32,000 nt of DNA, taken from Psychrobacter sp. DM4 (lineage in GTDB: Bacteria > Pseudomonadota > Gammaproteobacteria > Pseudomonadales > Moraxellaceae). The stretch is from NCBI RefSeq assembly GCF_051307035.1, contig NZ_CP195536.1:90001-122000 (forward strand), read 5' to 3'. Shown one piece after another: positions 9,939 to 32,000 of the stretch. The position numbers were made by a program, and so were the translations under genes. Positions within the stretch are counted from its first letter, which is position 1. The number at the start of each line of letters is the position of its first letter. The notes below the pieces were generated by a model, which had not been told where the DNA came from, made no database searches, and saw nothing but the letters and a program-made list of their open reading frames with translations.

Positions 9939-10869
9939 ATGATGCAACAAATTCTAGATGACATCGCCGCCCAAATGACAATCGAGACCGAGCGTGGAAA
10001 AGTAGCGGACTACATTCCGCAGCTGGCTCATGTCGATCCTAATCAATTTGGTATTGCCGTCGCGACTCCTGATGGGCAAGTCTATAGCGCAGGAGATGCC
10101 AGTACGCTGTTCTCCATACAAAGTATCTCTAAAGTATTTACGCTAACTATTGGTCTTAGCAAACTTGGCAGTACCCTGTGGAATCATGTCGGTCGTGAGC
10201 CCTCAGGCGACCCCTTTAACTCCATTACCATACTCGAGTATGAGTCGGGCAGGCCGCGTAATCCCTTTATCAATGCGGGCGCGATTGCGGTAGTCGATGC
10301 CATTACTATGGGACGCGAGCCAAAAGAGATATTGGATGAGATTATACAGTTTGTGCATTTTATAGCAGACGATGAGTCGATCTGCTTTGATTATAAAGTA
10401 GCAAGGTCTGAGATCGATCACGAGGATCGCAACGCCGCGCTCGCTCATTTTATGAAGTCTTTTGGTCATCTGCAACATGACGTCGATAAGATACTCAATA
10501 CTTACTTTCATCAATGCTCGATTGCCATTAGCTGTGAGCTGTGAGCAGTTAGCCCGTGCTGGTCTGTTTTTGGTCTCTAACGGTATCAATGAGCCCACAG
10601 GAGCAAAGGTGATCAGCCCGCAGCAATCTAAGCGGATTAATTCACTGATGATGATGTGTGGTCATTACGATGGCTCTGGCGAGTTTGCCTATCAGGTGGG
10701 TCTCCCAGGCAAAAGCGGCGTCGGTGGCGGCATTCTAACAATAGCACCGGGTAAGGGCGCAATCGCAGTATGGTCACCTGGCCTAAATCCAGTGGGTAAC
10801 TCAGAACTTGGCACAAAAGCATTAGAGCTACTGGTAGAAAAAACAGGATGGTCGGTATTTTCAAACTAA
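9939..10869 (+). pseudogene. glsA: Glutaminase A gene disrupted by a 7-bp tandem duplication (frameshift)
   Basis: Two overlapping ORFs (9939-10544 and 10462-10869) together cover a complete glutaminase (…FSIQSISKVFT… / …[12 protein letters not shown]…GKSGVGGGI…). At 10530-10546 the sequence reads agctgtg-agctgtg-agc. Deleting one 7-mer restores …[15 protein letters not shown]… and a 307-codon ORF. Confidence 0.85.
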
Positions 10870-17254: not shown

Positions 17255-18367
17255 ATGAAAGCAACATTGAAGAGTTTACGTGAGACAAAAGCTAATCCTG
17301 CTGTCAGTATCTTTGTAAAGACCCATCGTGAGCATCCTGCTAATGAAAAAGATCCTATCGCCCTCAAAAATCAATTAAAGGTCGCAGAAGAGCGTCTAAA
17401 TAAAGAGTACGATAAGAACACGGCAACCACTATTATAGATAGTATTCATGCCAAGACCGATGAGCTCAATCATAATTATAACTTAGATACTTTAGCCATC
17501 TTTGCAAGTGTCAATGATGTACAGATTATTCGCATGCCATTAGATACAACAGAGCGCGTCGTAATCTCAGACAGCTTTGCAACCCGTGATCTAGTACGTG
17601 ACATGGCAAGCGCGGTACATTTTTATACCGTCGTATTGACTCGTGATATGGCCCGTTTAATTGAAGCCTCTAACGATCGCGTCGTTGCCGAATTTGACAA
17701 AGACGATGACAAGCAAAACAATATGGAAAACATTGCCTTTCCAGTTGAGAATAATGGTTTATATACTACCAGCGACGGCGGATCAGATCGCTCATCGAAC
17801 AACGAAAGTAGCCATCTAAAAGAATTCTTTAACCAAGTGGATAAAAGCGTTCAAGAGCTGTGGGGTGAGCACAAGATGCCACTCGTTATCGTTGGTGACG
17901 CCAAAAACATCGGCTACTACAAAGAGGTTTGTGATCGTCCAGACAATATTATCGCGACAGTCTCAAATGTGACCAACCTTGATGATGGTAATGCACAGCA
18001 TATCGTCGATGGCGTACAAGACGCCGTAGAGGAATACCGTGCCTCATTACATGAAGCGGCTATGGGAGAGATTGATAAAGCGCGCGGTGCAGATATGTTA
18101 CGTACGGACTTGCAAGAAGTCTATCGTGGTGCTTTTCAAGGTGCTGGTGAGACGTTATATGTCCGTCGTGGTTATATAAAGCCTGCTAAGATTGACGAAA
18201 AAGCGCAAACACTAACCCTAGCAGATGACGCTGCTGGTGAAGGCGTTACAGATGACGCGATTGGCGTCATCATTGAGCATGTCATTCACAACGGTGGTGA
18301 TGTGGTCTTTATGCCAGAGGAAATCATGGGCGAAGATCAACCTATTGCTCTAGTGACTCGTTATTAG
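17255..18367 (+). CDS. Bacterial aeRF1/Pelota-like protein (baeRF / Balon-type candidate ribosome hibernation factor)
   Basis: 370-aa ORF with AAGGA SD (17242-17246) and a strong terminator. The N-terminal baeRF-like pattern is LKSLRETKANPAVSIFVKTHREHP…IALKNQLKVAEERL. The domain-2-like strand is FYTVVLTRDMARLIEASND, and SDGGSDRS sits where eRF1 has GGQ. The domain-3 motif is GAGETLYV (cf. GAVETLLV) and the C-terminus is GGDVVFMPEE…PIALVTRY* (cf. GG.V..vs…GIAAILRY). Confidence 0.7.
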   Translation: MKATLKSLRETKANPAVSIFVKTHREHPANEKDPIALKNQLKVAEERLNKEYDKNTATTIIDSIHAKTDELNHNYNLDTLAIFASVNDVQIIRMPLDTTERVVISDSFATRDLVRDMASAVHFYTVVLTRDMARLIEASNDRVVAEFDKDDDKQNNMENIAFPVENNGLYTTSDGGSDRSSNNESSHLKEFFNQVDKSVQELWGEHKMPLVIVGDAKNIGYYKEVCDRPDNIIATVSNVTNLDDGNAQHIVDGVQDAVEEYRASLHEAAMGEIDKARGADMLRTDLQEVYRGAFQGAGETLYVRRGYIKPAKIDEKAQTLTLADDAAGEGVTDDAIGVIIEHVIHNGGDVVFMPEEIMGEDQPIALVTRY

Positions 18368-18499: not shown

Positions 18500-19336
18500 A
18501 TGCACATTATGCTCATTCCAAACAATGACGTCGGTCATTTAGTCAAAAGTACGCAAGCCTTTGTCTCATTAGCGCTACGCGGTGGACGTGGGGTTATGGG
18601 TACAGGACAACCTATGCAACCTAAAAAGATGCTTGTTCTTTATGAGCATGAAGCCTGTCCTTACTCGCGCCGCGTACGTGAAGTCATGACCCGCCTAAAT
18701 TTAGATTACGAGAGTCGTCCTAGTCCGCACAAAGGTCACGTTTATCGTGATGAGCTAGAAGAGCTGACTGGCAAAACGCAAGTGCCCTTTATGATCGATG
18801 AGAACTTCGCTGAAGGGGAGGAGGGCCATCAAATATTGGACTCACAAGCCATCATCGATCATCTGTTCACACATTATTCTAAAAAAGGCTCAACGCCCCC
18901 TAAGTTTCAACGTGAGCATAAAAAAGACAATGCTTCGATAGTCAATAAAGCGGCTAGCATGGCCTCTATGATGCGCGGTGTGAGGGCAGTCCATCCTAAA
19001 AAGAATGAGGCGCGCGGCAAACCTGATGAGCCATTGCATCTATACGGATTTGAGGCTAGTCCCTTTTGCCGGCTAGTACGTGAGCGCTTAAGTGAATTAG
19101 AAGTCGGTTACATCAACCACAACGTCGCTCGTGAGCAGATAAAAGATATCGGTGCTTTTGGTTTTCACTTGACGCTAGGTGAGTATCAGCCTATCAAAGG
19201 CGGCAAACGTGATCAGCTTATGAATGGCGAGTTAAACGGTAAGCTGCTATTTCCTTATCTAGTCGATCCCAACACAGGGGCGCAGATGTACGAGTCGCAG
19301 GACATCATCAGTTATCTTAATGATATTTATGGCTAG
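18500..19336 (+). CDS. Tandem glutaredoxin-like / GST N-terminal (thioredoxin-fold) domain protein
   Basis: It has two Grx/GST-N-like modules. The first is MLVLYEHEACPYSRRVREVM…GKTQVPFMIDEN…ILDSQAIIDHL. The second is LHLYGFEASPFCRLVRERL…FPYLVDPNTGAQMYESQDIISYL. The ORF is open from TTG 18479; ATG 18500 is used here, but the start is uncertain. Confidence 0.8.
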   Translation: MHIMLIPNNDVGHLVKSTQAFVSLALRGGRGVMGTGQPMQPKKMLVLYEHEACPYSRRVREVMTRLNLDYESRPSPHKGHVYRDELEELTGKTQVPFMIDENFAEGEEGHQILDSQAIIDHLFTHYSKKGSTPPKFQREHKKDNASIVNKAASMASMMRGVRAVHPKKNEARGKPDEPLHLYGFEASPFCRLVRERLSELEVGYINHNVAREQIKDIGAFGFHLTLGEYQPIKGGKRDQLMNGELNGKLLFPYLVDPNTGAQMYESQDIISYLNDIYG

Positions 19337-19363
19337 TATTGAATAGTCAGATTAATATTGCAA

Positions 19364-19398
19364 AAAAGGTGATTAGCTTTGGCTATATCATCTTTTTT
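19364..19398 (+). terminator. Probable terminator after the Grx/GST-like gene
   Basis: A-run, then an imperfect hairpin (gattagc / gcta(t)atc), then T7 at 19392-19398. Confidence 0.5.
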
Positions 19399-19500
19399 TA
19401 TAAATTCTAGTTGTTAATGATTGACTTTATCAAAAGGTAATAACTATTTAGGGCAAAATGCTGATAAAAACCAATAACGTATGATGACCTAATTTACTTA

Positions 19501-19546
19501 TCTTGGTGCAAAATGTTCTACGATAGTGCGCTTTTTTGCACCAAGA
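19501..19546. repeat. Perfect 13-bp inverted repeat with 20-nt spacer
   Basis: tcttggtgcaaaa (19501-19513) is the exact reverse complement of ttttgcaccaaga (19534-19546). A T-rich stretch follows 4 nt later. Confidence 0.6.
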
Positions 19547-19829
19547 TATATTTTTTAAGGGTGTTTAGGCTATAGTAAGTCATTCAAATAAACTATCTAA
19601 ATTTTTCTAACTTATGAAATGAAATGAATTATTTATTCTATTATCCCTAATGACTTTATTTTTAGTTAATGACGTTTTAGGGTTAGCAGATATAGGGTGA
19701 GTCTTGTATAAAAGCGTTTTTAATATTAAAAACTTGTATGACCTTGAAGGCTCTACTCAAGATAAGTCGGATAAATTAGAGTGTTGTAATAGATTATGTT
19801 TTTGGACATAAGTAGGTTTGGCACATCAT

Positions 19830-19858
19830 TTGCAACCTTTAGAGGGTAAGTTTATATA
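19830..19858 (+). promoter_or_regulatory. Candidate sigma70 promoter for the riboswitch-led operon
   Basis: TTGCAA (19830-19835), a 17-bp spacer, then TATATA (19853-19858). The predicted start lies ~25-30 nt upstream of the riboswitch CTAGGG block. Confidence 0.4.
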
Positions 19859-19890
19859 TTCTTAATTTCAATTAAGAGCTAAAAAAAGCT

Positions 19891-20010
19891 GTCTAGGGTC
19901 CCGGTATAGCACGCACTAAAAGTTTGCAAATAACTTTTGCGCTATATGTCTGGTTCGAGAGATGGCGGTTCGCAAGAACTACACGGAGGGATAAAAGCCC
20001 GGGAGACTCT
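19891..20010 (+). promoter_or_regulatory. Guanidine-I riboswitch aptamer (ykkC-yxkD motif, subtype 1)
   Basis: All three conserved ykkC blocks are present in the correct order: CTAGGGTCCCGG (19893-19904), CTGGTTCGAGAG (19950-19961) and ACACGGAGGGATAAAAGCCCGGGAGA (19981-20006). An extended P1 arm lies between the first two, with a perfect inner hairpin aaaagtt/aactttt at 19918-19938. The element sits immediately 5' of a urea-carboxylase-type operon, the classic genomic context. Confidence 0.85.
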
Positions 20011-20053
20011 AAGTGACACTGATCACTTAAGCTCTGTAATCGTGGGAGTTTTT

Positions 20054-20902
20054 ATGTCAACGGATCCAAAAAACGCATCAAATTTGCCTAGTTTTGATGA
20101 CTCTAAAAGTCAAAATACTGACAACCAAAGCTCTGCTACTCAAAACCTTGATAGCCAAAATCTAGCCCTATTTCAAACGCTGATTCCCGGTGGTCATCAC
20201 TGGTGTGGTCGTATCAATAGACATCATACTTTGACACTCACCTCATTGGCTGACAACGCCAACTTGAGTCTATACGTCGTCAATGCTGACGAAAAACTCG
20301 AACGTTTCAACATGCCGGATAGCCTTAAAGCGCAGCATACGCTGTATCTATCGCAAGGCCATGTCCTGTACTCGGATATGGGTCGAGTGCTCGCTTCTAT
20401 TACTAGTGACGATCACGGCTGGAACGATGTGCTGTGCGGCGCTAGTAGTGCTACTACTATTGCCAATCAGTATGGCAAAAAAACCTTTCAAGAGGCGCGC
20501 AATGATCGCCATTTAAGCGGTGTTGATGGCTTGCTCACTGATATGGCAAAGTTTGCGCTAACGGCTGCTGACCTCACGGCAACGCTCAACCTATTCTCTA
20601 AAGTAGTGCCTGATAATGACGGTCAACTGTCCTACATCACCAGCGATAATACCAATCAAGCCATTACCTTACGCTTCGAGATGAATTGCTTAGTGTTCTT
20701 ATGCAATGCCCCGCATCCTCTAGACCCAGCAACTATTTATAATCCTGCCGATATTGAACTCAGCCTCAACCGCTCACAACCGATTGCTTCAATAAGTGAC
20801 AGCGATGTCTGCCGTGATTCCTGTGCGCAAAATCAGCGCGGCTTCGAAAACAACGCGCGTTACTTTGGTGATTATGTACCAGCGACCGCAGCATTAATTT
20901 GA
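20054..20902 (+). CDS. Urea-carboxylase-associated DUF1989 protein (putative carboxyguanidine deiminase subunit)
   Basis: DUF1989-like sequence (…LIPGGHHWCGRINRHHTLTLTSL…NMPDSLKAQHTLYLSQGHVLYSDMGRVLASIT…). GGGAG SD (20044-20048) lies 5 nt before ATG 20054. The track start at 19937 would translate the riboswitch. Confidence 0.85.
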   Translation: MSTDPKNASNLPSFDDSKSQNTDNQSSATQNLDSQNLALFQTLIPGGHHWCGRINRHHTLTLTSLADNANLSLYVVNADEKLERFNMPDSLKAQHTLYLSQGHVLYSDMGRVLASITSDDHGWNDVLCGASSATTIANQYGKKTFQEARNDRHLSGVDGLLTDMAKFALTAADLTATLNLFSKVVPDNDGQLSYITSDNTNQAITLRFEMNCLVFLCNAPHPLDPATIYNPADIELSLNRSQPIASISDSDVCRDSCAQNQRGFENNARYFGDYVPATAALI

Positions 20903-20956
20903 TGGTTTTAATCGTTTTGAGCTGAAAACCAATATTGATAGGTAGAGGATTATTAA

Positions 20957-21643
20957 ATGACTATTTTAAATGAAGAATTAAAGCAATCGAGTACGACAGT
21001 GAGCGAATTAACGATCGATTTAGACCGTGTAGTATCGCGTGAGGTTTGCGCAGCTGGCGCAGGCTGGATGGCAGAGGTTAAGCAAAATCAAACCTTAAGA
21101 ATTATAGATTTAGAGGGCAATCAAGCGGTAGACACCTTATTTATCAGCAGTGCTGATACTGACGAGCGTTATAGCGCTACCGATACTTTAGCGAATAACA
21201 AAAATGTCTATTTAGAAAAAGGAAGCGATCTATTTAGCAATCAAGGCCGCGTCATCGCGACTATCACCGATGACAATTGTGGTCGTCATGACACGCTAGG
21301 CGGCGCTTGTTCTTGTGAGAGTAATACTGTGCGTTATGCGCAGGATACTTATCCGATGCACAGCTGTCGCAACAATTTTATGTATAGCTTAGCGACGCAT
21401 CCTATCGCGCAGCAGTTCCAACTCAACGTGCGTCATATTGGCCCTAACATTAATTTCTTTATGAATGTTCCCGTGACAAGCGATGGTCAATTAGCTTTTG
21501 ACGACGGAATATCAGCGCCCGGTAAGTATGTCGATATCACCGCGCAGATGGATATGATCGTACTAATATCGAATTGCCCTCAGCTTAATAATCCTTGTAA
21601 TGCTTACAACCCGACGCCTATTGAATTAGTGATTTATGAATAA
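20957..21643 (+). CDS. Urea-carboxylase-associated DUF1989 protein, second paralogue (putative carboxyguanidine deiminase subunit)
   Basis: It is a paralogue of the preceding gene (…GAGWMAEVKQNQTLRIIDLEGNQAVDTLF…SNQGRVIATITDD…NPCNAYNPTPIELVIYE). Pairing of two DUF1989 genes next to the carboxylase is the usual arrangement. Confidence 0.9.
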   Translation: MTILNEELKQSSTTVSELTIDLDRVVSREVCAAGAGWMAEVKQNQTLRIIDLEGNQAVDTLFISSADTDERYSATDTLANNKNVYLEKGSDLFSNQGRVIATITDDNCGRHDTLGGACSCESNTVRYAQDTYPMHSCRNNFMYSLATHPIAQQFQLNVRHIGPNINFFMNVPVTSDGQLAFDDGISAPGKYVDITAQMDMIVLISNCPQLNNPCNAYNPTPIELVIYE

Positions 21644-21717
21644 GTTTAACGCTTAAAAAGGTCATTCATTATCAATAAATTGCTATAAAAACTGGCTACA
21701 GTATTAAGGATAAGATC

Positions 21718-24700
21718 ATGTTCAAAAAAGTATTAATCGCTAATCGTGGTGCCATTACTTGTCGCGTGATACGCACGTTGAAGCAGATGAACATCCTCTC
21801 TGTCGCGGTCTACACTGATGCGGATCGCGGCTCATTGCATGTCAGTGAAGCTGATGAAGCGATAAAAATAGGCTCAGGATCTGCCAGCGAGAGTTATCTC
21901 AATATCGATAAAGTCATACAGGCGGCACTAGAGTCAGGCGCTGAAGCTATTCATCCGGGTTATGGATTTTTATCAGAGAACGCTGAATTCTGTGCGCGTT
22001 GTACCGAGGCGGGCATTGCGTTTATGGGGCCAACGCCTGAGCAACTATTGAGCTTTGGCCTCAAACACACCGCGCGCGAGCTGGCAACGCAAAGCCAAGT
22101 GCCCCTGTTACCAGGTAGCGATCTATTACAGGATATAAACGAAGCGGTAAGCGAAGCTGAGCGTATCGGCTATCCCGTCATGCTCAAGAGCACCGCTGGC
22201 GGCGGCGGTATTGGCATGCGCTTGGTTGCCAATGAGATAGAGCTCATCGAGGCCTATGAAGCCGTTCATCATTTAGCACAAAATAACTTTAGTAATGCCG
22301 GACTCTATCTTGAGAAGTTTGTAGAAAACGCGCGGCATATCGAAGTCCAAGTATTCGGTGATGGTCACGGCAATATTATCACTTTAGGAGAGCGCGACTG
22401 TTCAATTCAACGCCGCAATCAAAAGGTCGTAGAAGAGACGCCTGCGCCGCTTTTATCTGATAGTCAAAGACAGCAGTTACAACAAGTATCTACTGCCCTA
22501 ATGCAACAAGTGAATTACCGCTCTGCTGGCACGGTAGAGTTTGTGATGGATGTCGCAACCCAGAACTTTTACTTTTTGGAGGTTAATACACGCCTGCAAG
22601 TGGAGCACGGCATCACCGAAGAGATTTATCAAGTTGATATCGTGCGCTGGATGATTGAGCTGGCGGCAGGTGAGTTTGTAGCGCCAACATTACCGCTAAA
22701 GCCTTCAGGACATTCTATTGAAGTGCGTCTATACGCTGAGGATCCAATAAAGAATTTTCAACCGAGTACGGGTTTATTCACTGACGTCTATTTTGATCCA
22801 GAGGCACGAGTCGAGACTTGGATAGAGACCGGTAGCAACATCTCCGCTTTTTATGATCCGATGATCGCCAAAATCATAGTGACGGCTCCTGATCGCGAGC
22901 AAGCACTGGCTAAGATGACTCAGACACTCGCGGTATCTCGTATAGCGGGCATCGAGACAAATTTAGAGTATTTACAGCAGATATTTACATCGCCTGTGTT
23001 CATCAAGGGCGAGCAAACGACAAAGCTGTTAAATAGCTTTAGCTGGTTAAGTCAAAAAATTGAAGTACTAGTATCAGGGGTACAGACAGCGGTTCAAGAT
23101 GTGGTAGGTCGCCAAGGATATTGGAATGTTGGGGTACCGCCATCAGGTGCTATTGATGCGTTAAGTCTCAATACTGCTAATCAGCTCTTGGGCAATGAGT
23201 TCAATAGCGCAGGTCTAGAATGTGTGGTCACTGGACCGACGCTACGCTTTCATTGCGACAGCCAGATTGCGATCACTGGTGGCGCGATGGTCTGCACTTT
23301 GGATGAGCAAGTTATTCCCATGTGGCAAAGCGTGACCGTGAAAAAAGGTCAAGTCTTAGAATGTGGCAACATCACCTCAGGCTGTCGAAGCTATATCGGT
23401 ATCAAAGGCGGTATGGTCATTCCTGAATATTTAGGGAGCCAAGCGACGTTTAGCTTAGGTAAGTTTGGCGGGCACGGTGGTAGAAACCTCATCGTTGGTG
23501 ACATGCTACCCATTCAACAATTCGCAGTAGAGACTAACACTCAAATCGTCACCCAACACTCAATTCAGTGCTTAGCTGATAAGCAAAGACCTGAATTTAA
23601 TGGCCTATGGCAGATAGCGGTCATCTATGGGCCACATGGCGCACCAGACTTTTTTACGGAGTCCGATGTAGCACAATTCTTTGAACACCAGTGGGACGTC
23701 CATCATAACTCTAGCCGTACAGGTATTCGTCTCGTTGGCCCCAAACCTGAGTGGGCACGCGAAGATGGCGGTGAGGCGGGTCTGCACCCCTCAAACATTC
23801 ATGACAATGCTTATGCGGTCGGCGCTATCGACTTCACAGGGGATATGCCTATTATTTTAGGCCCTGATGGCCCAAGTCTAGGCGGGTTTGTGTGTTTAAG
23901 CGTTATCGTTGCTAGCGAGCGCTGGAAGATGGGTCAGCTCAAAGCTGGTGATAAAGTACAGTTTGTTCCGATTAGCTCTGAGCAAGCCAATAACTTGCAC
24001 CAGCGCTACGAGACGATGCTCAAAGCTGACGATACTCAATTAGTAGATTACGCTCTGCCTATGACGGTTGAGCCCGCCACTTTATCGACCGCGATTCTCG
24101 ATTCAATATCTAGCAGCGCTGAGCTGGCTGATGACTGCCCAAAAGTGGTCTATCGTCCTGCTGGTGATTGCTACCTGTTGATCGAATACGGCGCGCAAAT
24201 ACTTGATTTGCAATTGCGTTTTCGCGTTCAGGCGCTGATGGAGTACCTGCAAGCTCAACAGATCGCCGCCTTTGTAGATTTGACCCCGGGCATTCGCTCC
24301 CTGCTTGTGCATTATCGTCCTCTAGAGCTTTCGAAAACTGAGCTGTTAGCTATTCTCAAGCGAGCTGAGCATGAGTTACCTGACATCAAAAACATGCAAG
24401 TACCTTCTAGAATTGTACATCTACCGATGGCTTGGGCCGACTCACAAACTGCGCTGGCAACTGAGAAGTATCAGCAGTTAGTGCGACCTGATGCGCCTTG
24501 GTGCCCTGACAATATTGAATTTATCAGACGCACTAATGGACTTAAGTCAGCACAAGCGGTCAAGGATATCGTCTATCAGGCCAGCTACTTAGTTATGGGT
24601 TTAGGTGATGTCTATTTAGGCGCCCCTGTCGCCACGCCACTTGACCCTAGACACCGATTGGTCACTACCAAATACAATCCTGCTCGAACGTGGACGCCAG

Positions 24701-25368
24701 AGAACGCTGTTGGTATCGGTGGTGCTTATCTGTGTGTCTATGGTATGGAAGGGCCCGGTGGCTATCAGTTCGTCGGTAGAACGATTCAGATATGGAATCG
24801 TTATCGCCCGCATCCAAGCTTTGAGCCTGATAAGCCTTGGCTGCTTAGATTCTTTGACCAGATCCGCTTTTATGAAGTCAGTGAAGATGAGCTGTTATCG
24901 ATGCGTGACTCATTCGAGGCGGGCGAATTAGCAGTTAAGATTGAAGATAGTGTGCTTAATTTAGCTGAATACTATCAGATGCTCAATGACAATAAGCAAG
25001 ATATTCAAAGCTTTAAACAGCAGCAGCAAACGAGCTTTGAGGCTGAGCGTCAACGCTGGCAGCAGCAGGGACTAGACAGCTATATCAATGACGAGATAAC
25101 AGTAGCTGAGGTGGAATCAGATATCGTGATTCCTGAAGGCGGCATGGTGGTGCAAGCACACATGATGGGCAGTATTTGGAAGATTAACTGCGCGGTAGGC
25201 GATGTGGTTAGTAAAGGACAAGTACTCGCTATCGTTGAAGCTATGAAAATTGAGCTCCCTATACTCTCGCCAGTAAATATGACGGTGGTCAGCATTGAGA
25301 CCGAAGTCGGTATGACGGTCAAAACCGAGCAGCCATTATTTGTACTAGCGCCAACAGCGGCTGAGTAA
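21718..25368 (+). CDS. Biotin-dependent urea carboxylase family enzyme, probably guanidine carboxylase
   Basis: The 1216-aa protein has an N-terminal biotin carboxylase/ATP-grasp domain (KVLIANRGAITCRVIRT, MLKSTAGGGGIGMRL, EVNTRLQVEH). Central allophanate-hydrolase-subunit-like (KipA/KipI-type) carboxyltransferase domains follow. The C-terminal biotinyl domain has the EAMKIE motif (Lys codon 25246-25248). Confidence 0.93.
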   Translation: MFKKVLIANRGAITCRVIRTLKQMNILSVAVYTDADRGSLHVSEADEAIKIGSGSASESYLNIDKVIQAALESGAEAIHPGYGFLSENAEFCARCTEAGIAFMGPTPEQLLSFGLKHTARELATQSQVPLLPGSDLLQDINEAVSEAERIGYPVMLKSTAGGGGIGMRLVANEIELIEAYEAVHHLAQNNFSNAGLYLEKFVENARHIEVQVFGDGHGNIITLGERDCSIQRRNQKVVEETPAPLLSDSQRQQLQQVSTALMQQVNYRSAGTVEFVMDVATQNFYFLEVNTRLQVEHGITEEIYQVDIVRWMIELAAGEFVAPTLPLKPSGHSIEVRLYAEDPIKNFQPSTGLFTDVYFDPEARVETWIETGSNISAFYDPMIAKIIVTAPDREQALAKMTQTLAVSRIAGIETNLEYLQQIFTSPVFIKGEQTTKLLNSFSWLSQKIEVLVSGVQTAVQDVVGRQGYWNVGVPPSGAIDALSLNTANQLLGNEFNSAGLECVVTGPTLRFHCDSQIAITGGAMVCTLDEQVIPMWQSVTVKKGQVLECGNITSGCRSYIGIKGGMVIPEYLGSQATFSLGKFGGHGGRNLIVGDMLPIQQFAVETNTQIVTQHSIQCLADKQRPEFNGLWQIAVIYGPHGAPDFFTESDVAQFFEHQWDVHHNSSRTGIRLVGPKPEWAREDGGEAGLHPSNIHDNAYAVGAIDFTGDMPIILGPDGPSLGGFVCLSVIVASERWKMGQLKAGDKVQFVPISSEQANNLHQRYETMLKADDTQLVDYALPMTVEPATLSTAILDSISSSAELADDCPKVVYRPAGDCYLLIEYGAQILDLQLRFRVQALMEYLQAQQIAAFVDLTPGIRSLLVHYRPLELSKTELLAILKRAEHELPDIKNMQVPSRIVHLPMAWADSQTALATEKYQQLVRPDAPWCPDNIEFIRRTNGLKSAQAVKDIVYQASYLVMGLGDVYLGAPVATPLDPRHRLVTTKYNPARTWTPENAVGIGGAYLCVYGMEGPGGYQFVGRTIQIWNRYRPHPSFEPDKPWLLRFFDQIRFYEVSEDELLSMRDSFEAGELAVKIEDSVLNLAEYYQMLNDNKQDIQSFKQQQQTSFEAERQRWQQQGLDSYINDEITVAEVESDIVIPEGGMVVQAHMMGSIWKINCAVGDVVSKGQVLAIVEAMKIELPILSPVNMTVVSIETEVGMTVKTEQPLFVLAPTAAE

Positions 25369-25410
25369 AGCGTCAAATTGCCTTAATGCTAATAAAAAAA
25401 GAGAAAAATT

Positions 25411-27222
25411 ATGCAAACGAATTGGACTATAGATGACTGGCAGCAAGCGTATGATCGAGGCGATTGTCAGTTGACTGATCTCATAGATTATGTCGCTCAG
25501 ATAAACAACGACAATAATGCTTGGATAGCGATAGCGACCGAGCAGCAACTTCATGAGCAAATTAAAGTTATCAGCGCTCAAAAGTCAGCTGATTTACCGC
25601 TATACGGTATTCCTTTTGGCGTCAAAGACAATATCGATGTCGCTGGATTTGATACCACAGCCGCTTGTCCCGCTAGTCTTTATGTCGCCGAAAAAGACGC
25701 TTATGTGGTCGCAAAGCTCAAAGCTGCCGGCGCAATCGTCATTGGTAAGACTAATCTTGATCAATTTGCCACGGGACTCGTCGGCACACGCTCGCCACAT
25801 GGGGCGGTCAGCAATAGCTTTGATGCTAAATACATCAGTGGTGGTTCAAGCTCAGGATCAGCGATCAGTGTAGCCAATGGCGTCGTGCCTTTTGCATTAG
25901 GGACAGATACCGCAGGTTCCGGGCGCGTTCCCGCTGGGCACAACAACATCGTTGGTCTTAAACCTACTAAGGGGTGGCTGTCAACAACAGGTCTGATTCC
26001 GGCTTGTCAGCTTCATGATGTCATTTCTATCTTTGCGCTTACTATCAAAGAGGCGTGGCAGGTCGCTAGCATTATGCAAGGTTATGATGAGCAAGACAGC
26101 TATAGTCGAACTCATCCCAAAACAGCGCCAGTCGCTTTTAGTTTGGGCAGAGTTGCTATTCCTAATAGCCTAGAGTTTTATGGTGATAATCATTCCACGC
26201 AAGCCTTTGAGCAAGCTATTGAACGCTTAGAGAAATTAGGTTATGACGTCTGTCCTATCGATTTTGACGTGTTTGATGAGTTAGCAGATGCACTTTATAA
26301 CGACAGCTGGGTCAGTGAACGCGCTTTTGCTATCGATAATCGAGTTAACCGCGATGCGCTGTTACCTATTACTCGTCAAATTATTAGCCAAGCAGACAAC
26401 TATAGCGCTGTAGATGCGATGGCAGCGGAGTACTCCAGAGCTAAGCTGAGTCGCCGCATCGATCAGATAATGACTCAGTTTGATGCGCTTATGGTACCGA
26501 CCGCGCCAACGATTTATACCATTGAAGAGTTAGAGGCCGATCCGCTGAGCAAAAACAGCCACATGGGCGCTTATACCAATTTTGTCAATTTGGCAGACTT
26601 ATCAGCGTTAGCGCTACCCAATGTAATAGCTGAAGACGGACTACCGCGTGGCGTTACTTTTATTGCCAAGGCTTGGCACGATGAAGCGCTAGCTAACTTT
26701 GGCCACCGGTGGCAGTTAGCGCTCGATATTCCACTAGGCACTTCTAATCAATCCTATCAATCTATAAGTAGTACCGAATCATCGGCGCTTATACCTTTAC
26801 AAGACACCCCGAACATAAATAGCAGCATCAAGTTAGCGGTAGTTGGCGCGCACTTGAGCGGTATGCCGCTTAACTATCAGCTAACCGATAGGGGCGGCGT
26901 ATTAGCACAAAAAACACAAACCGCAGACGGCTATAAGCTCTTTGCTTTATCGGGCTCAACACCTGCCAAACCCGGATTACAGTGTCATATTGAGGGCAGC
27001 GCTATCGAAGTCGAAGTTTGGCATATTCCAACCGCAAGATTTGGTGAGATTGTCAACGAAGTACCTGCGCCTTTAGGCATCGGTAACGTCGAGCTGAGTG
27101 ATGGCAGCTGGGTTAACAGCTTTATTTGCGAAGGGTATGTCTTTGAACCAGAGTTTAATGGCGGCACTGACATTACTGAATTTGGCGGCTGGCGCGCTTA
27201 TATCGCTACGCTAAATTCGTAA
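25411..27222 (+). CDS. Allophanate hydrolase (amidase-signature family)
   Basis: Amidase signature GGSSSGSAISVANG…GTDTAGSGRVPA, plus the extra C-terminal allophanate-hydrolase domain (…VGAHLSGMPLNYQL…), 603 aa in total. Confidence 0.92.
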   Translation: MQTNWTIDDWQQAYDRGDCQLTDLIDYVAQINNDNNAWIAIATEQQLHEQIKVISAQKSADLPLYGIPFGVKDNIDVAGFDTTAACPASLYVAEKDAYVVAKLKAAGAIVIGKTNLDQFATGLVGTRSPHGAVSNSFDAKYISGGSSSGSAISVANGVVPFALGTDTAGSGRVPAGHNNIVGLKPTKGWLSTTGLIPACQLHDVISIFALTIKEAWQVASIMQGYDEQDSYSRTHPKTAPVAFSLGRVAIPNSLEFYGDNHSTQAFEQAIERLEKLGYDVCPIDFDVFDELADALYNDSWVSERAFAIDNRVNRDALLPITRQIISQADNYSAVDAMAAEYSRAKLSRRIDQIMTQFDALMVPTAPTIYTIEELEADPLSKNSHMGAYTNFVNLADLSALALPNVIAEDGLPRGVTFIAKAWHDEALANFGHRWQLALDIPLGTSNQSYQSISSTESSALIPLQDTPNINSSIKLAVVGAHLSGMPLNYQLTDRGGVLAQKTQTADGYKLFALSGSTPAKPGLQCHIEGSAIEVEVWHIPTARFGEIVNEVPAPLGIGNVELSDGSWVNSFICEGYVFEPEFNGGTDITEFGGWRAYIATLNS

Positions 27223-27389
27223 ACTCTACTATTAAAGTAATTTTGTCTAAAACGACATCATTTTTATGAAACAGTGACACGACTTTGCTATGACATCAGC
27301 GCAATTATCAACCCAGTCATCAGCACAATTACAATTAGCATCATCAGACTTATCCACAAAGGAGAAGTCACACTCTAGGAGCAAGACTC

Positions 27390-28415
27390 ATGAACAGACG
27401 TCTATTTACCTTTGCTATTTTATCAAGCGTTATGTTATTCGGTTGCGATAACACCGCTACGGTAACCGCACCTGAGGGTGAAGTCGCCGCTACCGAAACT
27501 ACCGCTACCAACAGCGATCCGATATCCATCGGCTATAGCGACTGGCCAGGCTGGGTTGCTTGGCAAATCGCTATTGAAAAAGGCTGGTTTGAAGAGGCAG
27601 GTGTCAATGTTGAGTTTGAATGGTTTGATTATTCAGCCTCCTTGTCCGCTTTTGCCTCAAACCAACTCGATGCGATCTCAGTCACTAACGGCGACAACTT
27701 AGTCAATGCGGCAAGCGGCAGTGAAGGCATCATTATCTTAGTCAATGACTACTCTAACGGTAACGATCAAATCATTGCCAAGCCTGAGTTTGCAAGCATT
27801 GCCGATCTAAAAGGCAAATCTATTGGCGTTGAAAAAGGCCTAGTTGATCATCTACTACTCAACAGTGCGCTGGCAGATAACGGCATGACCGAGGCCGATG
27901 TGACATTGGTTAATGCGGCGACCAACGAGTTACCCCAAGTATTCGGTAGCGATACTATCAATGCGGTCGCGCTGTGGCAGCCAAATGCTAACCAAGCTTT
28001 GAGCAATGTCGCAGGCTCAAAGGCACTGTATACCTCAGCCGATAAGCCCGGTCTGATCTATGACACTTTAGCGGTTAGTCCAACGAGTCTGGCGGCGAAC
28101 CGAGCTGAATACGCCAAGATTCTACTCGTTTGGGACAAGATCGTCAGCTATATCAATGATCCTGCAACCAGAGATGATGCTATCAAAATCATGTCGACTC
28201 GAGTCAATGTACCCGCAGATCAATATAGCAACTTTTTAGATGGCACTAAGCTACTGAGCCTAGCGGATAACAAAGCGATCTTTGAAAAGTCTGACGACTT
28301 CACCTCTATCTACGGCTCAAGTTATCACGTCAATCGTTTTAACATTGACAATCAGATTTATAACCAAGAGCTTGATATTGATAAGTTAATTTATCCAGAT
28401 CTAATCAACCAGTAA
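27390..28415 (+). CDS. ABC transporter substrate-binding lipoprotein (NitT/TauT, NMT1-like family; urea-carboxylase-region type)
   Basis: Lipoprotein signal MNRRLFTFAILSSVMLFG|C (lipobox LFGC). NMT1/SsuA-like body (ISIGYSDWPGWVAWQIAIEKGWFEEAGVNVEF…). Confidence 0.88.
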   Translation: MNRRLFTFAILSSVMLFGCDNTATVTAPEGEVAATETTATNSDPISIGYSDWPGWVAWQIAIEKGWFEEAGVNVEFEWFDYSASLSAFASNQLDAISVTNGDNLVNAASGSEGIIILVNDYSNGNDQIIAKPEFASIADLKGKSIGVEKGLVDHLLLNSALADNGMTEADVTLVNAATNELPQVFGSDTINAVALWQPNANQALSNVAGSKALYTSADKPGLIYDTLAVSPTSLAANRAEYAKILLVWDKIVSYINDPATRDDAIKIMSTRVNVPADQYSNFLDGTKLLSLADNKAIFEKSDDFTSIYGSSYHVNRFNIDNQIYNQELDIDKLIYPDLINQ

Positions 28416-28422
28416 CTATTTG

Positions 28423-28455
28423 GCATAACTGGCTAAGTCGTTTAGCCAGTTATGC
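28423..28455 (+). other. Perfect 14-bp intercistronic stem-loop (no T-run)
   Basis: gcataactggctaa (28423-28436) pairs exactly with ttagccagttatgc (28442-28455) across a 5-nt loop. It starts 8 nt after the stop of the binding-protein gene. Confidence 0.55.
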
Positions 28456-28579
28456 TATAGCTCAAAAAAGTCGTGGCAAGCATAAAAGAAATAAAGCCTA
28501 GGCCTTTGCGCAGCGACTACCATATTTTATTACTCGTTGTTTATTAATGACTGTCATCAAGTCGCTAAGGGGTTGGCCT

Positions 28580-29521
28580 ATGAGTCAAACAAACCAGTAT
28601 TTAACCAAAAAAACCACCCTTGGGCTTAATGTGCTCTCGTTTTTGATACCTATTTTGTTATGGTGCGCCGTAAGCTATCTGCCTTTTATTTGGCATTCAG
28701 AGGTGCAGATTACTGACGCGGGTAGCATGACGTATTTGCAAGAAGGTAGCCGAATCGACAAGGAATTATTTTTTAGTGAAGCGCAAAGCGCGATGGCGGC
28801 AGGGGATGCACCGCCTCAAGGCAAGCTCGTCAATCCCATTTATCTGCCAGCGCCTCACGAAGTTGCCATAGCGACGTTCACCGCTTTTACCACGCCACCG
28901 GTACAAGAAGACGCGCCTTGGCTGCACGAGAGCTTGTGGCAGAGTATAAAGACCGTCTTTATTGCCTTTTTTATCTCCTCCATAGTCGGTATACCACTAG
29001 GCCTTATCTGCGGATTCTCTGAAAAGATCGCTCAAATTACCCAGCCTTTTGTGGAGTTTTTTCGGTATTTACCAGCACCTGCGTTTGGTCCGCTAGCGGT
29101 AGCCATTTTGGGTATTTACGATGGACCAAAGATTGCCATTATCGTCATCGGTACTTTATTTCAGCAGATTCTTATCATTGCCAATACTACTCGGACGATG
29201 GATGTCGGGCTGATTGAAGCCGGATATACCCTTGGGACTACTAAACTTAAAAGCTTCTATTATGTGTTACTACCAGCCGTTATACCTGACGTCTATCGTG
29301 ATTTGAGAGTGCTATTGGGGTGGGCTTGGACGTATCTAATCGTCGCCGAACTCATCGGTACGACCTCAGGTATTACTTGGTTCATTGTGCAACAAGCGCG
29401 TTATCAGCAATTTGACAATGTTTACGCCGGCATCTTGCTCATTGGTTTTGTGGGATTGGGCACAGATATTTTACTGTACCAATTAGGCAAAAAACTCTTT
29501 AAATGGAAAGCGAGAACGTAG
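28580..29521 (+). CDS. ABC transporter permease (NitT/TauT family)
   Basis: Multi-TM protein with the EAA-type loop IEAGYTLGTTKLKSFYYVLLPAVIP. The ORF is open from ATG 28547. ATG 28580 is preferred because AAGGGG lies 7 nt upstream. Confidence 0.88.
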   Translation: MSQTNQYLTKKTTLGLNVLSFLIPILLWCAVSYLPFIWHSEVQITDAGSMTYLQEGSRIDKELFFSEAQSAMAAGDAPPQGKLVNPIYLPAPHEVAIATFTAFTTPPVQEDAPWLHESLWQSIKTVFIAFFISSIVGIPLGLICGFSEKIAQITQPFVEFFRYLPAPAFGPLAVAILGIYDGPKIAIIVIGTLFQQILIIANTTRTMDVGLIEAGYTLGTTKLKSFYYVLLPAVIPDVYRDLRVLLGWAWTYLIVAELIGTTSGITWFIVQQARYQQFDNVYAGILLIGFVGLGTDILLYQLGKKLFKWKART

Positions 29522-30430
29522 ATGACCATACTCAATAAAGACTTGCCGTTAGTTAATAAAGAAATGGCATCTAGTGACGACTATTTTAAACAGCTTTATC
29601 AGCGTCCAGTAGTGCTAAAAGTGGATAAGCTCACGCAAAAATTTACTGATGGGAAGTCGCAAAAGACGATTCTAAAAGAGATTGATCTACAAATTCATAA
29701 GCGTGAGTTTGTTTGCGTGATTGGGCCTTCTGGCTGTGGTAAATCGACGCTCGGCCGTATCATTGCAGGTCTCGATAGTTATCCAAGTGGTCAGGTCATC
29801 GTCGATGATGAACCTGTCAAAGGGCCGAGTGCTACTAGGGGTATGGTGTTCCAAGGTTATACGCTATTTCCATGGAAAACGGTCAAAGAGAACATCATGT
29901 TTGGACCAATCATGAAAGGTCAAAGCCATTCAAGTGCTAATCGCAGTGCGCGTGAGTGGCTCGATATCGTTGGACTTACTAAGTATAAAAACCATTACCC
30001 GCATCAGCTCTCAGGCGGTATGAAACAACGCGTCGCTATTGCCCGTGCGCTCATTAACGAGCCCAAGGTATTGATAATGGATGAGCCTTTTGGGGCGCTA
30101 GATCCTTATACTCGGCAAAAAATGCAAAAGCATCTGCTTGATCTATGGCGCAATATTGACATTACCATCGTCTTTATTACTCATGATATGGATGAAGCGG
30201 TGCTGTTGTCAGATCGTATCTTAGTTCTCAAAGCCAATCCAGGTGAAATACAAGATATCATTGAGGTGCCATTAGCGCGACCGCGTACCCCTGAGATGAT
30301 GACTGATCCGCAGTTTTTAGAGATAAAATCCTATATTAATAGTGTGGTTCATAGCCCGCACATTGAGGTAGATCCGGCTTTGGTTGATTTGCCTGACATT
30401 CCAAGAATGATACCTCTGGATAAAAGCTAA
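29522..30430 (+). CDS. ABC transporter ATP-binding protein (NitT/TauT family)
   Basis: Walker A GPSGCGKST, signature LSGGMKQR, Walker B LIMDEPFGALD, and H-loop ITHD. Its ATG immediately follows the permease TAG (tagatg), which suggests translational coupling. Confidence 0.93.
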   Translation: MTILNKDLPLVNKEMASSDDYFKQLYQRPVVLKVDKLTQKFTDGKSQKTILKEIDLQIHKREFVCVIGPSGCGKSTLGRIIAGLDSYPSGQVIVDDEPVKGPSATRGMVFQGYTLFPWKTVKENIMFGPIMKGQSHSSANRSAREWLDIVGLTKYKNHYPHQLSGGMKQRVAIARALINEPKVLIMDEPFGALDPYTRQKMQKHLLDLWRNIDITIVFITHDMDEAVLLSDRILVLKANPGEIQDIIEVPLARPRTPEMMTDPQFLEIKSYINSVVHSPHIEVDPALVDLPDIPRMIPLDKS

Positions 30431-30547
30431 GCACGCAAAAATAAATAAGCGCTGATTACTAAACAACAGGTAACGAGTGTTTTACATACTTGGAGATAGT
30501 GACTGTTATACTCTGTCATATATTCATTCCCAACTTATGATCTATCT

Positions 30548-31303
30548 ATGACAACGACTTCATTTACAGTGACCAGCTACAACATTCATAAAGGCATGTC
30601 GCCCATGAATCGACAAGTCAAAATGCAAGGCATCGCGCAGGCGCTCGACACCATACGCGCAGATGTGATTTGCTTGCAAGAAGTTCAAGGCCAAAACCTC
30701 AAACGTAATATGCAATACAACGAGTATCCTGAGCAATCGCAGCACGAGTGGTTCGGTGAATTTTTGCAGTTAGAAAACAGCTATGGCAAAAATTCAGAGT
30801 ACCAAAACGGTCATCATGGTAATGCGGTTCTGAGCCGATTCCCATTAGATCCAAAACACAACGTCAATATTACCGTAAATCGATTAGAACAGCGCGGGGT
30901 CTTACATTGTGAAGTGCAGCCTATTGGTTGGGACATTCCTGTCGTCATCTTGTGTGCACATCTTAATCTGTTTGAGCGCGACCGTATCAAGCAGTATGAA
31001 GCCATCAGCGACTATGTACGTAACGAGATCGCCCCTGATCAGCCATTAATTTTGGCAGGTGATTTTAACGACTGGAAAAAGATGTCTTGCGACAAATTAG
31101 CGACCAACCTTGGGATGACAGAGGCGCTTAGGTGCTGTCACGGTAAGTTACTGCCGACGTTTCCAGCTAAGCTACCAGTCCTCAGCTTAGATCGTATTTA
31201 TGTGCGTAATTTGATGATCAAGGATGCTTGGGTACACACCGGTAAGCCGTGGTCGGCGCTATCAGATCATCTGCCTATCAGTGCGACGCTGGTGTTAACA
31301 TAG
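30548..31303 (+). CDS. Endonuclease/exonuclease/phosphatase (EEP) family protein
   Basis: EEP motifs: SYNIHKG, ADVICLQEV, GDFND and C-terminal SDHLPI. Confidence 0.85.
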   Translation: MTTTSFTVTSYNIHKGMSPMNRQVKMQGIAQALDTIRADVICLQEVQGQNLKRNMQYNEYPEQSQHEWFGEFLQLENSYGKNSEYQNGHHGNAVLSRFPLDPKHNVNITVNRLEQRGVLHCEVQPIGWDIPVVILCAHLNLFERDRIKQYEAISDYVRNEIAPDQPLILAGDFNDWKKMSCDKLATNLGMTEALRCCHGKLLPTFPAKLPVLSLDRIYVRNLMIKDAWVHTGKPWSALSDHLPISATLVLT

Positions 31304-31348
31304 TGCCTTTGAGGCGCAACGAATTGATTAGAAATATAGAGGTGGTCG

Positions 31349-32000
31349 ATGATGTCTACGCAAACTATACCCAAAACGCAGCACGCCGTACTTATCAATG
31401 AGTTTGGCGCGCCTGAGGTTATGTATTATCAGGAGGGCGTTTTAGTTCCTAAGCCAAAAGACAATCAAGTCCTTGTGAAAGTCGCTTACGCAGGTGTCAA
31501 CCCAGTCGATTACAAAACCTGTTAAGGTAGAGGCTGGAGCGCAAATACTATTCAACAGAATTAGTTTGATCATGACCGGCCTGCAATTTTAGGCTTTGAT
31601 TTGGCAGGAACGGTAGCTAAAAGTAATAGCGATACCTTTGCAGTCGGTGACAAGGTGGCAGCACTCAGCTTTAACGGACAATGCTATGCTGAGTACGTCG
31701 CCGTAGAAGCAGAATTACTTGCCAAAATACCCGAGTCTATTACTTTAGAGCAGGCAGGTGCGTTACCTTGTGTAGGACAAACGGCGTTACAGTTCGTTGA
31801 CTTCGCTGATATAAAAGCAGGCGAGCATGTGGTCATGAATGCACCTGCTGGTGGCGTTGGACAATTGGTCATCCAATTACTAATGGACAGAGTCATCAAG
31901 GATAGCCTCAAAATTACAGTTATCTGCTCACCTGATAAATACGACAAACTTGATCAGCTTATCGATAAAAACAAGCTCGCAGGTTGGATTGACTACACCA
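31349..32000 (+). pseudogene. MDR-superfamily NADPH:quinone oxidoreductase-like gene with two in-frame stop codons (3' end beyond window)
   Basis: A single frame reads MMSTQTIPKTQHAVLINEFGAPEVMYYQEGVLVPKPKDNQVLVKVAYAGVNPVDYKTC*GRGWSANTIQQN*FDHDRPAILGFDLAGTV…MNAPAGGVGQLVIQLL…. The stops are TAA 31523-31525 and TAG 31562-31564. The flanking sequence is typical Qor/zinc-ADH-like, including the AxxGxxG Rossmann motif. Confidence 0.75.

Follow-up and report, generated by a model that had tools for sequence, protein, structure and literature searches.

A riboswitch-led "urea" operon of Psychrobacter sp. DM4 is predicted to import and degrade guanidine from a sigma-54 type promoter

The DNA considered here is a 32,000-nt stretch from Psychrobacter sp. 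DM4, a member of the Moraxellaceae (contig NZ_CP195536.1, positions 90,001 to 122,000 of the forward strand). The whole stretch is termed the window, and all coordinates are numbered within it. Seven intact open reading frames (ORFs) span 20054-30430 on its + strand, and encode two DUF1989 proteins, a biotin carboxylase, an allophanate hydrolase, and the binding lipoprotein, permease, and ATPase of a NitT/TauT-type ABC transporter. An earlier note, made from the sequence alone, had listed the genes in this order, and Pfam and NCBIfam matches agree with each identity. The gaps that it gave (54, 74, 42, 167, 164, and 0 nt) were likewise reproduced exactly from the ORF coordinates, with gene 1 read from 20054 and the permease from 28580. 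It had also cautioned that annotation by homology would call the cluster a urea pathway, and the NCBIfam name of every component does begin with "urea".

The cis-acting riboswitch on which the earlier note based its guanidine assignment was recovered by covariance-model search as Rfam family RF00442 (guanidine-I), just outside 20054-30430. The match covers the full model (positions 1-107 of 107; E = 1.6e-11), and no other Rfam family, the PRPP, ppGpp, and other ykkC subtype-2 variants included, was returned at the aptamer site at E up to 5. By its sequence the aptamer belongs to ykkC subtype 1, and the genes 3' of it are those usual for that subtype. Its variable P1b hairpin carries a 30-nt extension, and its core is invariant in the orthologous leaders of Psychrobacter and Acinetobacter. 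A permissive Rfam scan of 19300-31400 found no guanidine-II, guanidine-III, or other credible RNA family, with no guanidine-II riboswitch 5' of the carboxylase gene; weak matches to mir-2059 and speF in that interval were set aside as chance. The guanidine-I class has been published as specific for guanidine.

The carboxylase matches TIGR02712 ("urea carboxylase") above its cut-off of 1304 bits, over model positions 1-1200 of 1201. Its set of Pfam domains is complete (BC, the CT A/B and C/D subdomains, and BCCP), and the biotinyl-lysine motif EAMKIE lies at K1177. According to a published rule, guanidine carboxylases possess Asp at the equivalents of K. lactis residues 1584 and 1330, the latter being Asn in urea carboxylases (Palatinszky et al., PMC11410670; the same rule is summarised in PMC12186494). 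In a phmmer alignment with K. lactis urea carboxylase (3va7), Asp705 of the window enzyme falls on the Asn at chain position 737, which is residue 1330 by an offset of 593 obtained through comparison with the full-length chain 5i8i, and Asp964, in a GLGDV motif, falls on Asp1584. Both residues of the guanidine-carboxylase signature are present in the window enzyme. Related loci were surveyed by fetching 80 of 594 carboxylase relatives in species-representative genomes; Asp occupies both signature positions in all 80 carboxylases, and 68 of the loci have the riboswitch pattern. These alignments support the view that the enzyme acts on guanidine rather than urea.

The first two genes pass the UAAP1 (TIGR03425) and UAAP2 (TIGR03424) cut-offs, respectively, and one DUF1989 gene of each type side by side is the arrangement expected for the heteromeric carboxyguanidine deiminase CgdAB. 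We infer that they encode this enzyme, as the earlier note had proposed. The next gene in the pathway, for the predicted allophanate hydrolase step, is complete with all domains and motifs (NF006043, 770 bits against a cut-off of 487; TIGR02713, 753 against 511; the AH_C domain PF21986; the amidase signature GGSSSGS). Operons of like content have been shown to respond to guanidine and to support growth on it in Raoultella, Klebsiella, V. boliviensis, and P. syringae, and clusters of this kind are described in the same literature as misnamed (PMC12186494, PMC11410670). For the operon as a whole, the guanidine-over-urea interpretation is supported by these sequence features.

Table 1. Features of the guanidine locus and its flanks (window coordinates)
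Feature	Coordinates	Strand	Evidence
Hairpin, perfect 14-15 bp, followed by ATATTTTTT	19500..19556 (arms 19500-19513, 19534-19547)	+	dG -26.2 kcal/mol, z = -5.6
Candidate enhancer (upstream activating sequence, UAS) block TGGTGCAAAATGTTCTACGATAGTGCG with NtrC-like half-sites	19504..19530	+	cross-locus conservation
Sigma-54 type promoter TGGCAC-N5-TTGCA, -24 and -12 boxes, TGGCACATCATTTGCA	19819..19834	+	exact consensus
Guanidine-I aptamer	19882..20007	+	Rfam RF00442, 73.7 bits vs gathering score 63
Predicted expression-platform hairpin UAAGUGA-CACUGA-UCACUUA	20010..20029	+	RNA fold prediction; leader comparison
Ribosome-binding site GGGAG, U5 spacer, and AUG of gene 1	20044..20056	+	minimum-free-energy pairing
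DUF1989 protein, UAAP1-type, predicted carboxyguanidine deiminase subunit	20054..20902	+	PF09347 153 bits; TIGR03425 259 vs cut-off 206
DUF1989 protein, UAAP2-type, predicted carboxyguanidine deiminase subunit	20957..21643	+	PF09347 207 bits; TIGR03424 305 vs cut-off 285
Predicted biotin-dependent guanidine carboxylase (annotated urea carboxylase), 1216 aa	21718..25368	+	TIGR02712 1808 bits
Allophanate hydrolase	25411..27222	+	NF006043, TIGR02713, AH_C domain; PDB 4gyr E = 1.6e-150
NitT/TauT-type substrate-binding lipoprotein	27390..28415	+	NMT1, NMT1_2 Pfam matches
Intercistronic hairpin, perfect 15-bp, no U tail on either strand	28422..28455	+	dG -24.9 kcal/mol, z = -6.0
ABC permease	28580..29521	+	BPD_transp_1
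ABC ATPase	29522..30430	+	Walker A GPSGCGKS, signature LSGG
Endonuclease/exonuclease/phosphatase (EEP)-family gene	30548..31303	+	117 nt 3' of operon

The transporter is predicted to be an importer because it is binding-protein-dependent, and the presence of the lipoprotein subunit (lipobox LFGC, Cys19) bears out the earlier note on this point. By sequence, the binding protein represents a second, unnamed NitT/TauT subfamily distinct from TIGR03427. It is 27% identical to the canonical type, and the Acinetobacter and Coraliomargarita proteins score like it against TIGR03427, while a Vibrio protein of the canonical arrangement reaches 549 bits. Nonetheless, 64 aligned binding proteins of both types have in common the motifs G-[W/F]-x-x-W (W55, W58), N100-x-D102, D120-x-S-x-G-N-D126, W196-x-P198, P-G-x-I-x-D225, and W248. 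For GimA, the NitT/TauT binding protein of Synechocystis, isothermal titration calorimetry (ITC) gave a Kd of 97 nM for guanidine, and its residues W59, W62, D135, F205, and D233 have been proposed to contact the ligand (PMC12704784). Compared by spacing, not by alignment, W55/W58/D126/W196/D225 of the window protein lie at offsets of 3, 68-71, 138-141, and 167-170, against 3, 73-76, 143-146, and 171-174 in GimA, a suggestive parallel with the GimA aromatic cage and its two Asp residues. An AlphaFold model of the protein (pLDDT 82.7) found SsuA and TauA as its best folds in the Protein Data Bank (PDB), at TM 0.7-0.8 and 16-18% identity, and no closer solved structure than folds of this type. 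The nearest binding protein in a large sequence collection is 95% identical. In two Acinetobacter loci (L007, 15239-16255; L029, 21677-22684), a second paralogue of the same subfamily was observed, 46-52% identical.

The gene starts were chosen by their ribosome-binding sites. For gene 1, the mechanical ORF opens at a TTG at 19937, which lies within the riboswitch, while the ATG at 20054 has GGGAG 5' of it; for the permease, AAGGGG stands before the ATG at 28580, and a further ATG at 28547 is without a ribosome-binding site. The start codon of the ATPase gene directly adjoins the permease stop codon. On the + strand, no terminator-like or promoter-like site was found in the gaps between operon genes, and a terminator search of the leader and intergenic gaps found none outside coding sequence. 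The layout points to co-transcription of all seven genes in one message. Two hairpins lie within the longer gaps. The gap between the hydrolase and binding-protein genes is unconserved save for a small hairpin (27347-27369) some 20 nt 5' of the ribosome-binding site for the binding protein, the stem of which hairpin is GACUU/AAGUC in the window versus AGACA/UGUCU in Psychrobacter, with complementarity kept. The strong hairpin at 28422-28455 stands directly 3' of the binding-protein stop codon, in a segment of about 130 nt that is missing in Psychrobacter relatives, and may serve as an mRNA stabiliser or a partial attenuator that raises the binding protein relative to the membrane components. 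Downstream of the operon, the EEP-family gene is probably not part of the guanidine system, because it is syntenic in Psychrobacter only and missing from Acinetobacter and other guanidine loci; no terminator was found between it and the ATPase gene, and read-through into it may occur.

Upstream of the aptamer lies a sigma-54 type promoter of exact consensus, which was not part of the earlier note. The motif searched, TGGCAC-N5-TTGCW at fixed spacing, has this sole match within the window. Transcription is predicted to start near 19845, approximately 37 nt 5' of the aptamer, and the aptamer would therefore form the 5' end of the transcript. A single site of this kind would carry little weight by itself; across the 80 related loci, however, the motif occurs at the same relative position 5' of 59 of the 70 riboswitches, where 0.006 would be expected per 240-nt window. 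It is present in practically all Moraxellaceae loci, and also in Vibrio, Colwellia, Psychromonas, and one Devosia. The earlier note had preferred nitrogen scavenging to detoxification, and this conserved promoter lends support to that preference. Published work has come near to the connection: a "urea carboxylase" cluster of B. cenocepacia was shown to be NtrC-dependent and down-regulated in an ntrC mutant (PMC5491218), and, in a comparative study, 102 COG3665 (DUF1989) genes were predicted to have sigma-54 sites in front of them (PMC12316311). Neither of these papers makes a guanidine connection, and within the searchable library no paper linking a guanidine riboswitch with sigma-54 or NtrC was found. 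The closest published parallel is the cyanobacterial counterpart, which combines NtcA with a guanidine-I riboswitch.

A candidate enhancer for this promoter was found further upstream. It is a 27-bp block that reads TGGTGCA-AA-ATGTTCTACGATAGTGCG and is kept in five Psychrobacter loci, about 275 nt 5' of the -24 box, amid otherwise unconserved spacer. A block like it stands at -89 in Psychromonas (locus L057), and NtrC-like hexamers cluster by position; on this basis it may tentatively be regarded as the enhancer of the sigma-54 promoter. The hairpin at 19500-19556 probably serves the GST-like gene upstream as an intrinsic terminator, and would keep its transcripts from running on into the operon. 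Closer to the promoter, the window (19786-19792) and Psychrobacter have a single GTAATAG/A box. In Acinetobacter (loci L006, L008, L014, L020, and L035), two GTAWTAC boxes, 21 nt apart, stand directly 5' of the -24 box, e.g., AGTATTACGAATGCGAAAAATCGTAATACT; boxes of this type may be a protein-binding site.

The usual expression platform of guanidine-I riboswitches is an intrinsic terminator overlapping P3, a typical but not strictly defining feature of the class. The window has no terminator-like site from 20007 to 20054, and its leader departs from the usual platform. What is predicted there is the hairpin at 20010-20029, with an invariant stem and a variable loop across five Psychrobacter loci, which can extend to take in the GGAG of the aptamer 3' end and CUCU. 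In the minimum-free-energy fold, GGGAG-UUUUU-AU (20045-20055) pairs with the P3 loop and 3' strand, AUAAAAGCCC (19991-20000), and the unpaired probability of the spacer rises from 0.02-0.1 in the free fold to 0.4-0.6 when P3 is forced. The string GGAG-U6-AUG is conserved in all five Psychrobacter leaders. A translational switch acting on gene 1 would need Rho-dependent polarity in order to control the six downstream genes. Over its first 230 nt, gene 1 is rich in C and poor in G, with a C/G ratio of 1.4-1.8 (about the 75th to 95th percentile of the operon), which weakly supports a Rho loading site at the start of the gene. The N-terminus of gene 1 is a 38-aa low-complexity tail (20054-20170) that Acinetobacter lacks and that is variable among Psychrobacter relatives. 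It is tempting to suggest that this region might matter as RNA, for Rho loading, rather than through any protein function.

Taken as a whole, the operon very probably imports guanidine and breaks it down to ammonia as a nitrogen source under sigma-54 and riboswitch control. In the mechanism that we propose, nitrogen limitation would activate an enhancer-binding protein, most likely NtrC, and thereby transcription from the sigma-54 promoter, and the 5' leader would fold as the guanidine-I aptamer matched by the covariance model. Without guanidine, the ribosome-binding site and AUG of gene 1 would be paired with conserved aptamer bases, gene 1 would stay untranslated, and Rho, acting at the C-rich, G-poor start of the message, might halt transcription of the remaining genes. 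With guanidine bound, P3 would form, the ribosome-binding site would be freed, and the whole message would be expressed. Guanidine would then enter by way of the lipoprotein binding subunit, permease, and ATPase, and the biotin carboxylase would convert it, with ATP and bicarbonate, to carboxyguanidine. The two DUF1989 subunits would turn carboxyguanidine into allophanate and ammonia, and allophanate hydrolase would release two more ammonia and CO2. The chemistry of these steps is assigned by analogy with published homologues. The more specific version of this scheme is a two-input AND gate in which a sigma-54/NtrC-type activator is combined with a translation-acting riboswitch and probable Rho polarity, in Moraxellaceae and many other Gammaproteobacteria, and in which uptake proceeds through a second, guanidine-specific NitT/TauT subfamily. 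We would give that version an even chance.

Several observations weigh against one part or another of this scheme. At the promoter, no classical NtrC dyad (GCAC-N9-GTGC and similar) and no integration host factor (IHF) site was found 5' of the window sigma-54 promoter, and the candidate UAS is distant, at some 300 nt upstream, and coincides in part with the terminator-like hairpin at its 5' arm. In the leader, forcing P3 opens the ribosome-binding site only in part. The fold of lowest free energy pairs the ribosome-binding site with P3 in only two of six Psychrobacter-group leaders; in four of the five leaders of Psychrobacter relatives, the U-run is predicted to pair with the aptamer's 5' A-run instead, and in six of seven analysable Acinetobacter leaders the P3 segment takes up few bases of the ribosome-binding site and AUG, or none. 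Moreover, the translational mechanism is a thermodynamic prediction, and the paired bases are invariant, so covariation is impossible. The exact partner of the ribosome-binding site is uncertain because the P3 pairing is not the minimum-free-energy fold in most relatives; with that partner left unfixed, we consider a translational ON switch about as likely as not. At the transporter end, the binding protein fails the "urea carboxylase-associated" model TIGR03427 (139 bits against a cut-off of 333.9), its likeness to GimA rests on residue spacings rather than direct alignment, and the 167- and 164-nt gaps, together with the strong hairpin that follows the binding-protein gene, would permit separate or differential expression of the transporter.

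Other readings of the locus differ from this scheme in substrate or in purpose. Were the annotation literal, the operon would encode a urea carboxylase/allophanate hydrolase route, an ABC transporter for urea, and a pair of accessory proteins. The NCBIfam names of the components and the end-to-end alignment of the carboxylase with K. lactis 3va7 speak for such a route, but a guanidine-I aptamer in cis, Asp705 where the urea enzyme has Asn, two DUF1989 proteins that would be superfluous for a urea pathway, and the reports that such clusters are misnamed (PMC12186494, PMC11410670) make it hardly credible. If guanidine is the substrate, it could still be degraded mainly for detoxification, whether of internal or of high-level guanidine, and not as a source of nitrogen; guanidine is toxic, most guanidine riboswitches control exporters (PMC12186494), and an SMR-type exporter gene is found near related Acinetobacter loci. 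The window has no exporter, however, and a binding-protein-dependent importer in the same operon would make little sense for detoxification alone, while the conserved sigma-54 promoter is typical of nitrogen-regulated genes. We consider detoxification quite improbable as the main role, and the two roles are mutually compatible.

Two further alternatives concern the ABC transporter. It could carry some other small cation or a substituted guanidine in place of free guanidine, as the low TIGR03427 score and the 27% identity to the canonical type might suggest, and extended methylguanidine operons have been published. This is unlikely, given that neither a demethylase nor any other trimming enzyme is encoded in the window, that the Trp and Asp motifs are common to both types across the 64 proteins, and that the riboswitch class is specific for guanidine. 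A doubtful, if somewhat better, case can be made for two transcripts, in which only the enzyme genes would be under riboswitch control and the transporter genes would be read from a promoter of their own in the 167-nt gap, as with gimABC in Synechocystis, where GimABC has a separate NtcA promoter (PMC12704784). The length of the 167- and 164-nt gaps fits this arrangement, as does the placement of the permease and ATPase genes on the opposite strand in Acinetobacter; against it, the gaps hold no + strand promoter-like site, second sigma-54 motif, or terminator, gene order is fixed in six genomes, and the gap is poorly conserved except next to the ribosome-binding site.

The preferred reading, i.e., guanidine import and degradation from a single message, can be set against the known systems. 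The same parts list (riboswitch, importer, CgdAB, Asp-signature carboxylase, and hydrolase) is found in the operons of P. syringae DC3000, Raoultella terrigena, Klebsiella michiganensis, and Vreelandella boliviensis. Their order is transporter-cgdAB-gca-atzF, whereas in the window it is inverted, with the enzymes first and the transporter last; the window also lacks their internal guanidine-II riboswitch before the carboxylase gene and their platform terminator, and its binding protein is of the other subfamily. The window order is likewise inverted relative to the Vibrio, Methylophaga, and Colwellia loci, which, together with those of Neptuniibacter, Psychromonas, and others, follow the literature-type order of riboswitch, transporter, cgdAB, carboxylase, and hydrolase. 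The GimABC/GdmH system of Synechocystis sp. PCC 6803 resembles the window in having a NitT/TauT-type guanidine importer and a nitrogen-status regulator combined with a guanidine-I riboswitch, features that are predicted on the window side. Synechocystis degrades guanidine by a Ni-dependent guanidinase and urease, whereas the window is predicted to do so by carboxylation, and the Synechocystis regulator is NtcA at a sigma-70 type promoter, with a separate promoter for the transporter, in contrast to the sigma-54 promoter of the window. Finally, the yeast urea amidolyase/urea carboxylase (K. lactis; PDB 3va7, 5i8i) has the same domain architecture and fold family (residues 2-1183 aligned, 1140 bits), but has Asn1330 where the window has Asp705, is fused to allophanate hydrolase, and is without DUF1989 partners or a riboswitch.

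The closest carboxylases come from Psychrobacter (80% identity), followed by Acinetobacter (66%). Five Psychrobacter species have an identical order, namely riboswitch, cgdA, cgdB, carboxylase, hydrolase, binding protein, permease, ATPase, and EEP-family gene. Both flanks of the operon, which carry infB-rbfA-truB-rpsO-pnp and other housekeeping genes, are syntenic with Psychrobacter, and the base composition of the operon equals that of its flanks. Horizontal acquisition was rejected on these two grounds, and the operon is therefore taken to be a resident chromosomal locus of a Psychrobacter-like organism rather than an island. The Acinetobacter loci (L006-L043) are like the window in their sigma-54 promoter, guanidine-I aptamer, cgdA, cgdB, and carboxylase, and in a binding protein of the same subfamily (about 60% identity). 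Unlike the window, they are fragmented: variable inserts of 0.8-7 kb lie 3' of the carboxylase gene, the permease and ATPase are encoded on the opposite strand, SMR, 2OG-oxygenase, and NikR-like genes occur in addition, and the expression platform is a different one. In one of them, from Acinetobacter lwoffii (L020, 13627-16091 and 17163-22874), a Thoeris-like module (ThsB-TIR, SIR2-STALD, TIR) was observed between the carboxylase and hydrolase genes, near a NikR-like gene, an SMR (Gdx-like) exporter, and a 2OG-Fe(II) oxygenase.

Elsewhere in the window, three other genes were noted in passing. Upstream of the operon, 17255-18367 encodes a bacterial eRF1-like "baeRF family 3" protein (PF18845), with 86-88% identity in Psychrobacter. 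At 9939-10869, a glutaminase is split into two overlapping ORFs, 9939-10544 and 10462-10869, which match Pfam Glutaminase positions 1-181 and 175-286, respectively; the split reflects a frameshift, a pseudogene, or an error in sequencing. Finally, the start of an ORF 3' of the EEP-family gene (about 31349-31600) resembles, by eye, a zinc-type/quinone oxidoreductase, with an apparent in-frame stop before a PAILGFD-like motif.

The guanidine-pathway idea itself is not new, and is said to have been put forward by Nelson in 2017, Schneider in 2020, and Sinn in 2021. The pathway biology was published between 2017 and 2025, and the present operon is a further example of it in the Moraxellaceae that leaves the known picture of guanidine metabolism unchanged. 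Its local peculiarities are the inverted gene order, the single riboswitch, the terminator-less platform, the conserved sigma-54 promoter, and the second binding-protein subfamily, the last being a candidate high-affinity guanidine receptor with neither a solved structure nor a curated model. The reading corrects a systematic "urea" mis-annotation in Psychrobacter and Acinetobacter genomes, and predicts that these cold-adapted and host-associated bacteria can draw nitrogen from guanidine. The conserved sigma-54 promoter, in turn, suggests in testable form how carriers of the carboxylase pathway may avoid spending ATP on guanidine when ammonium is plentiful.

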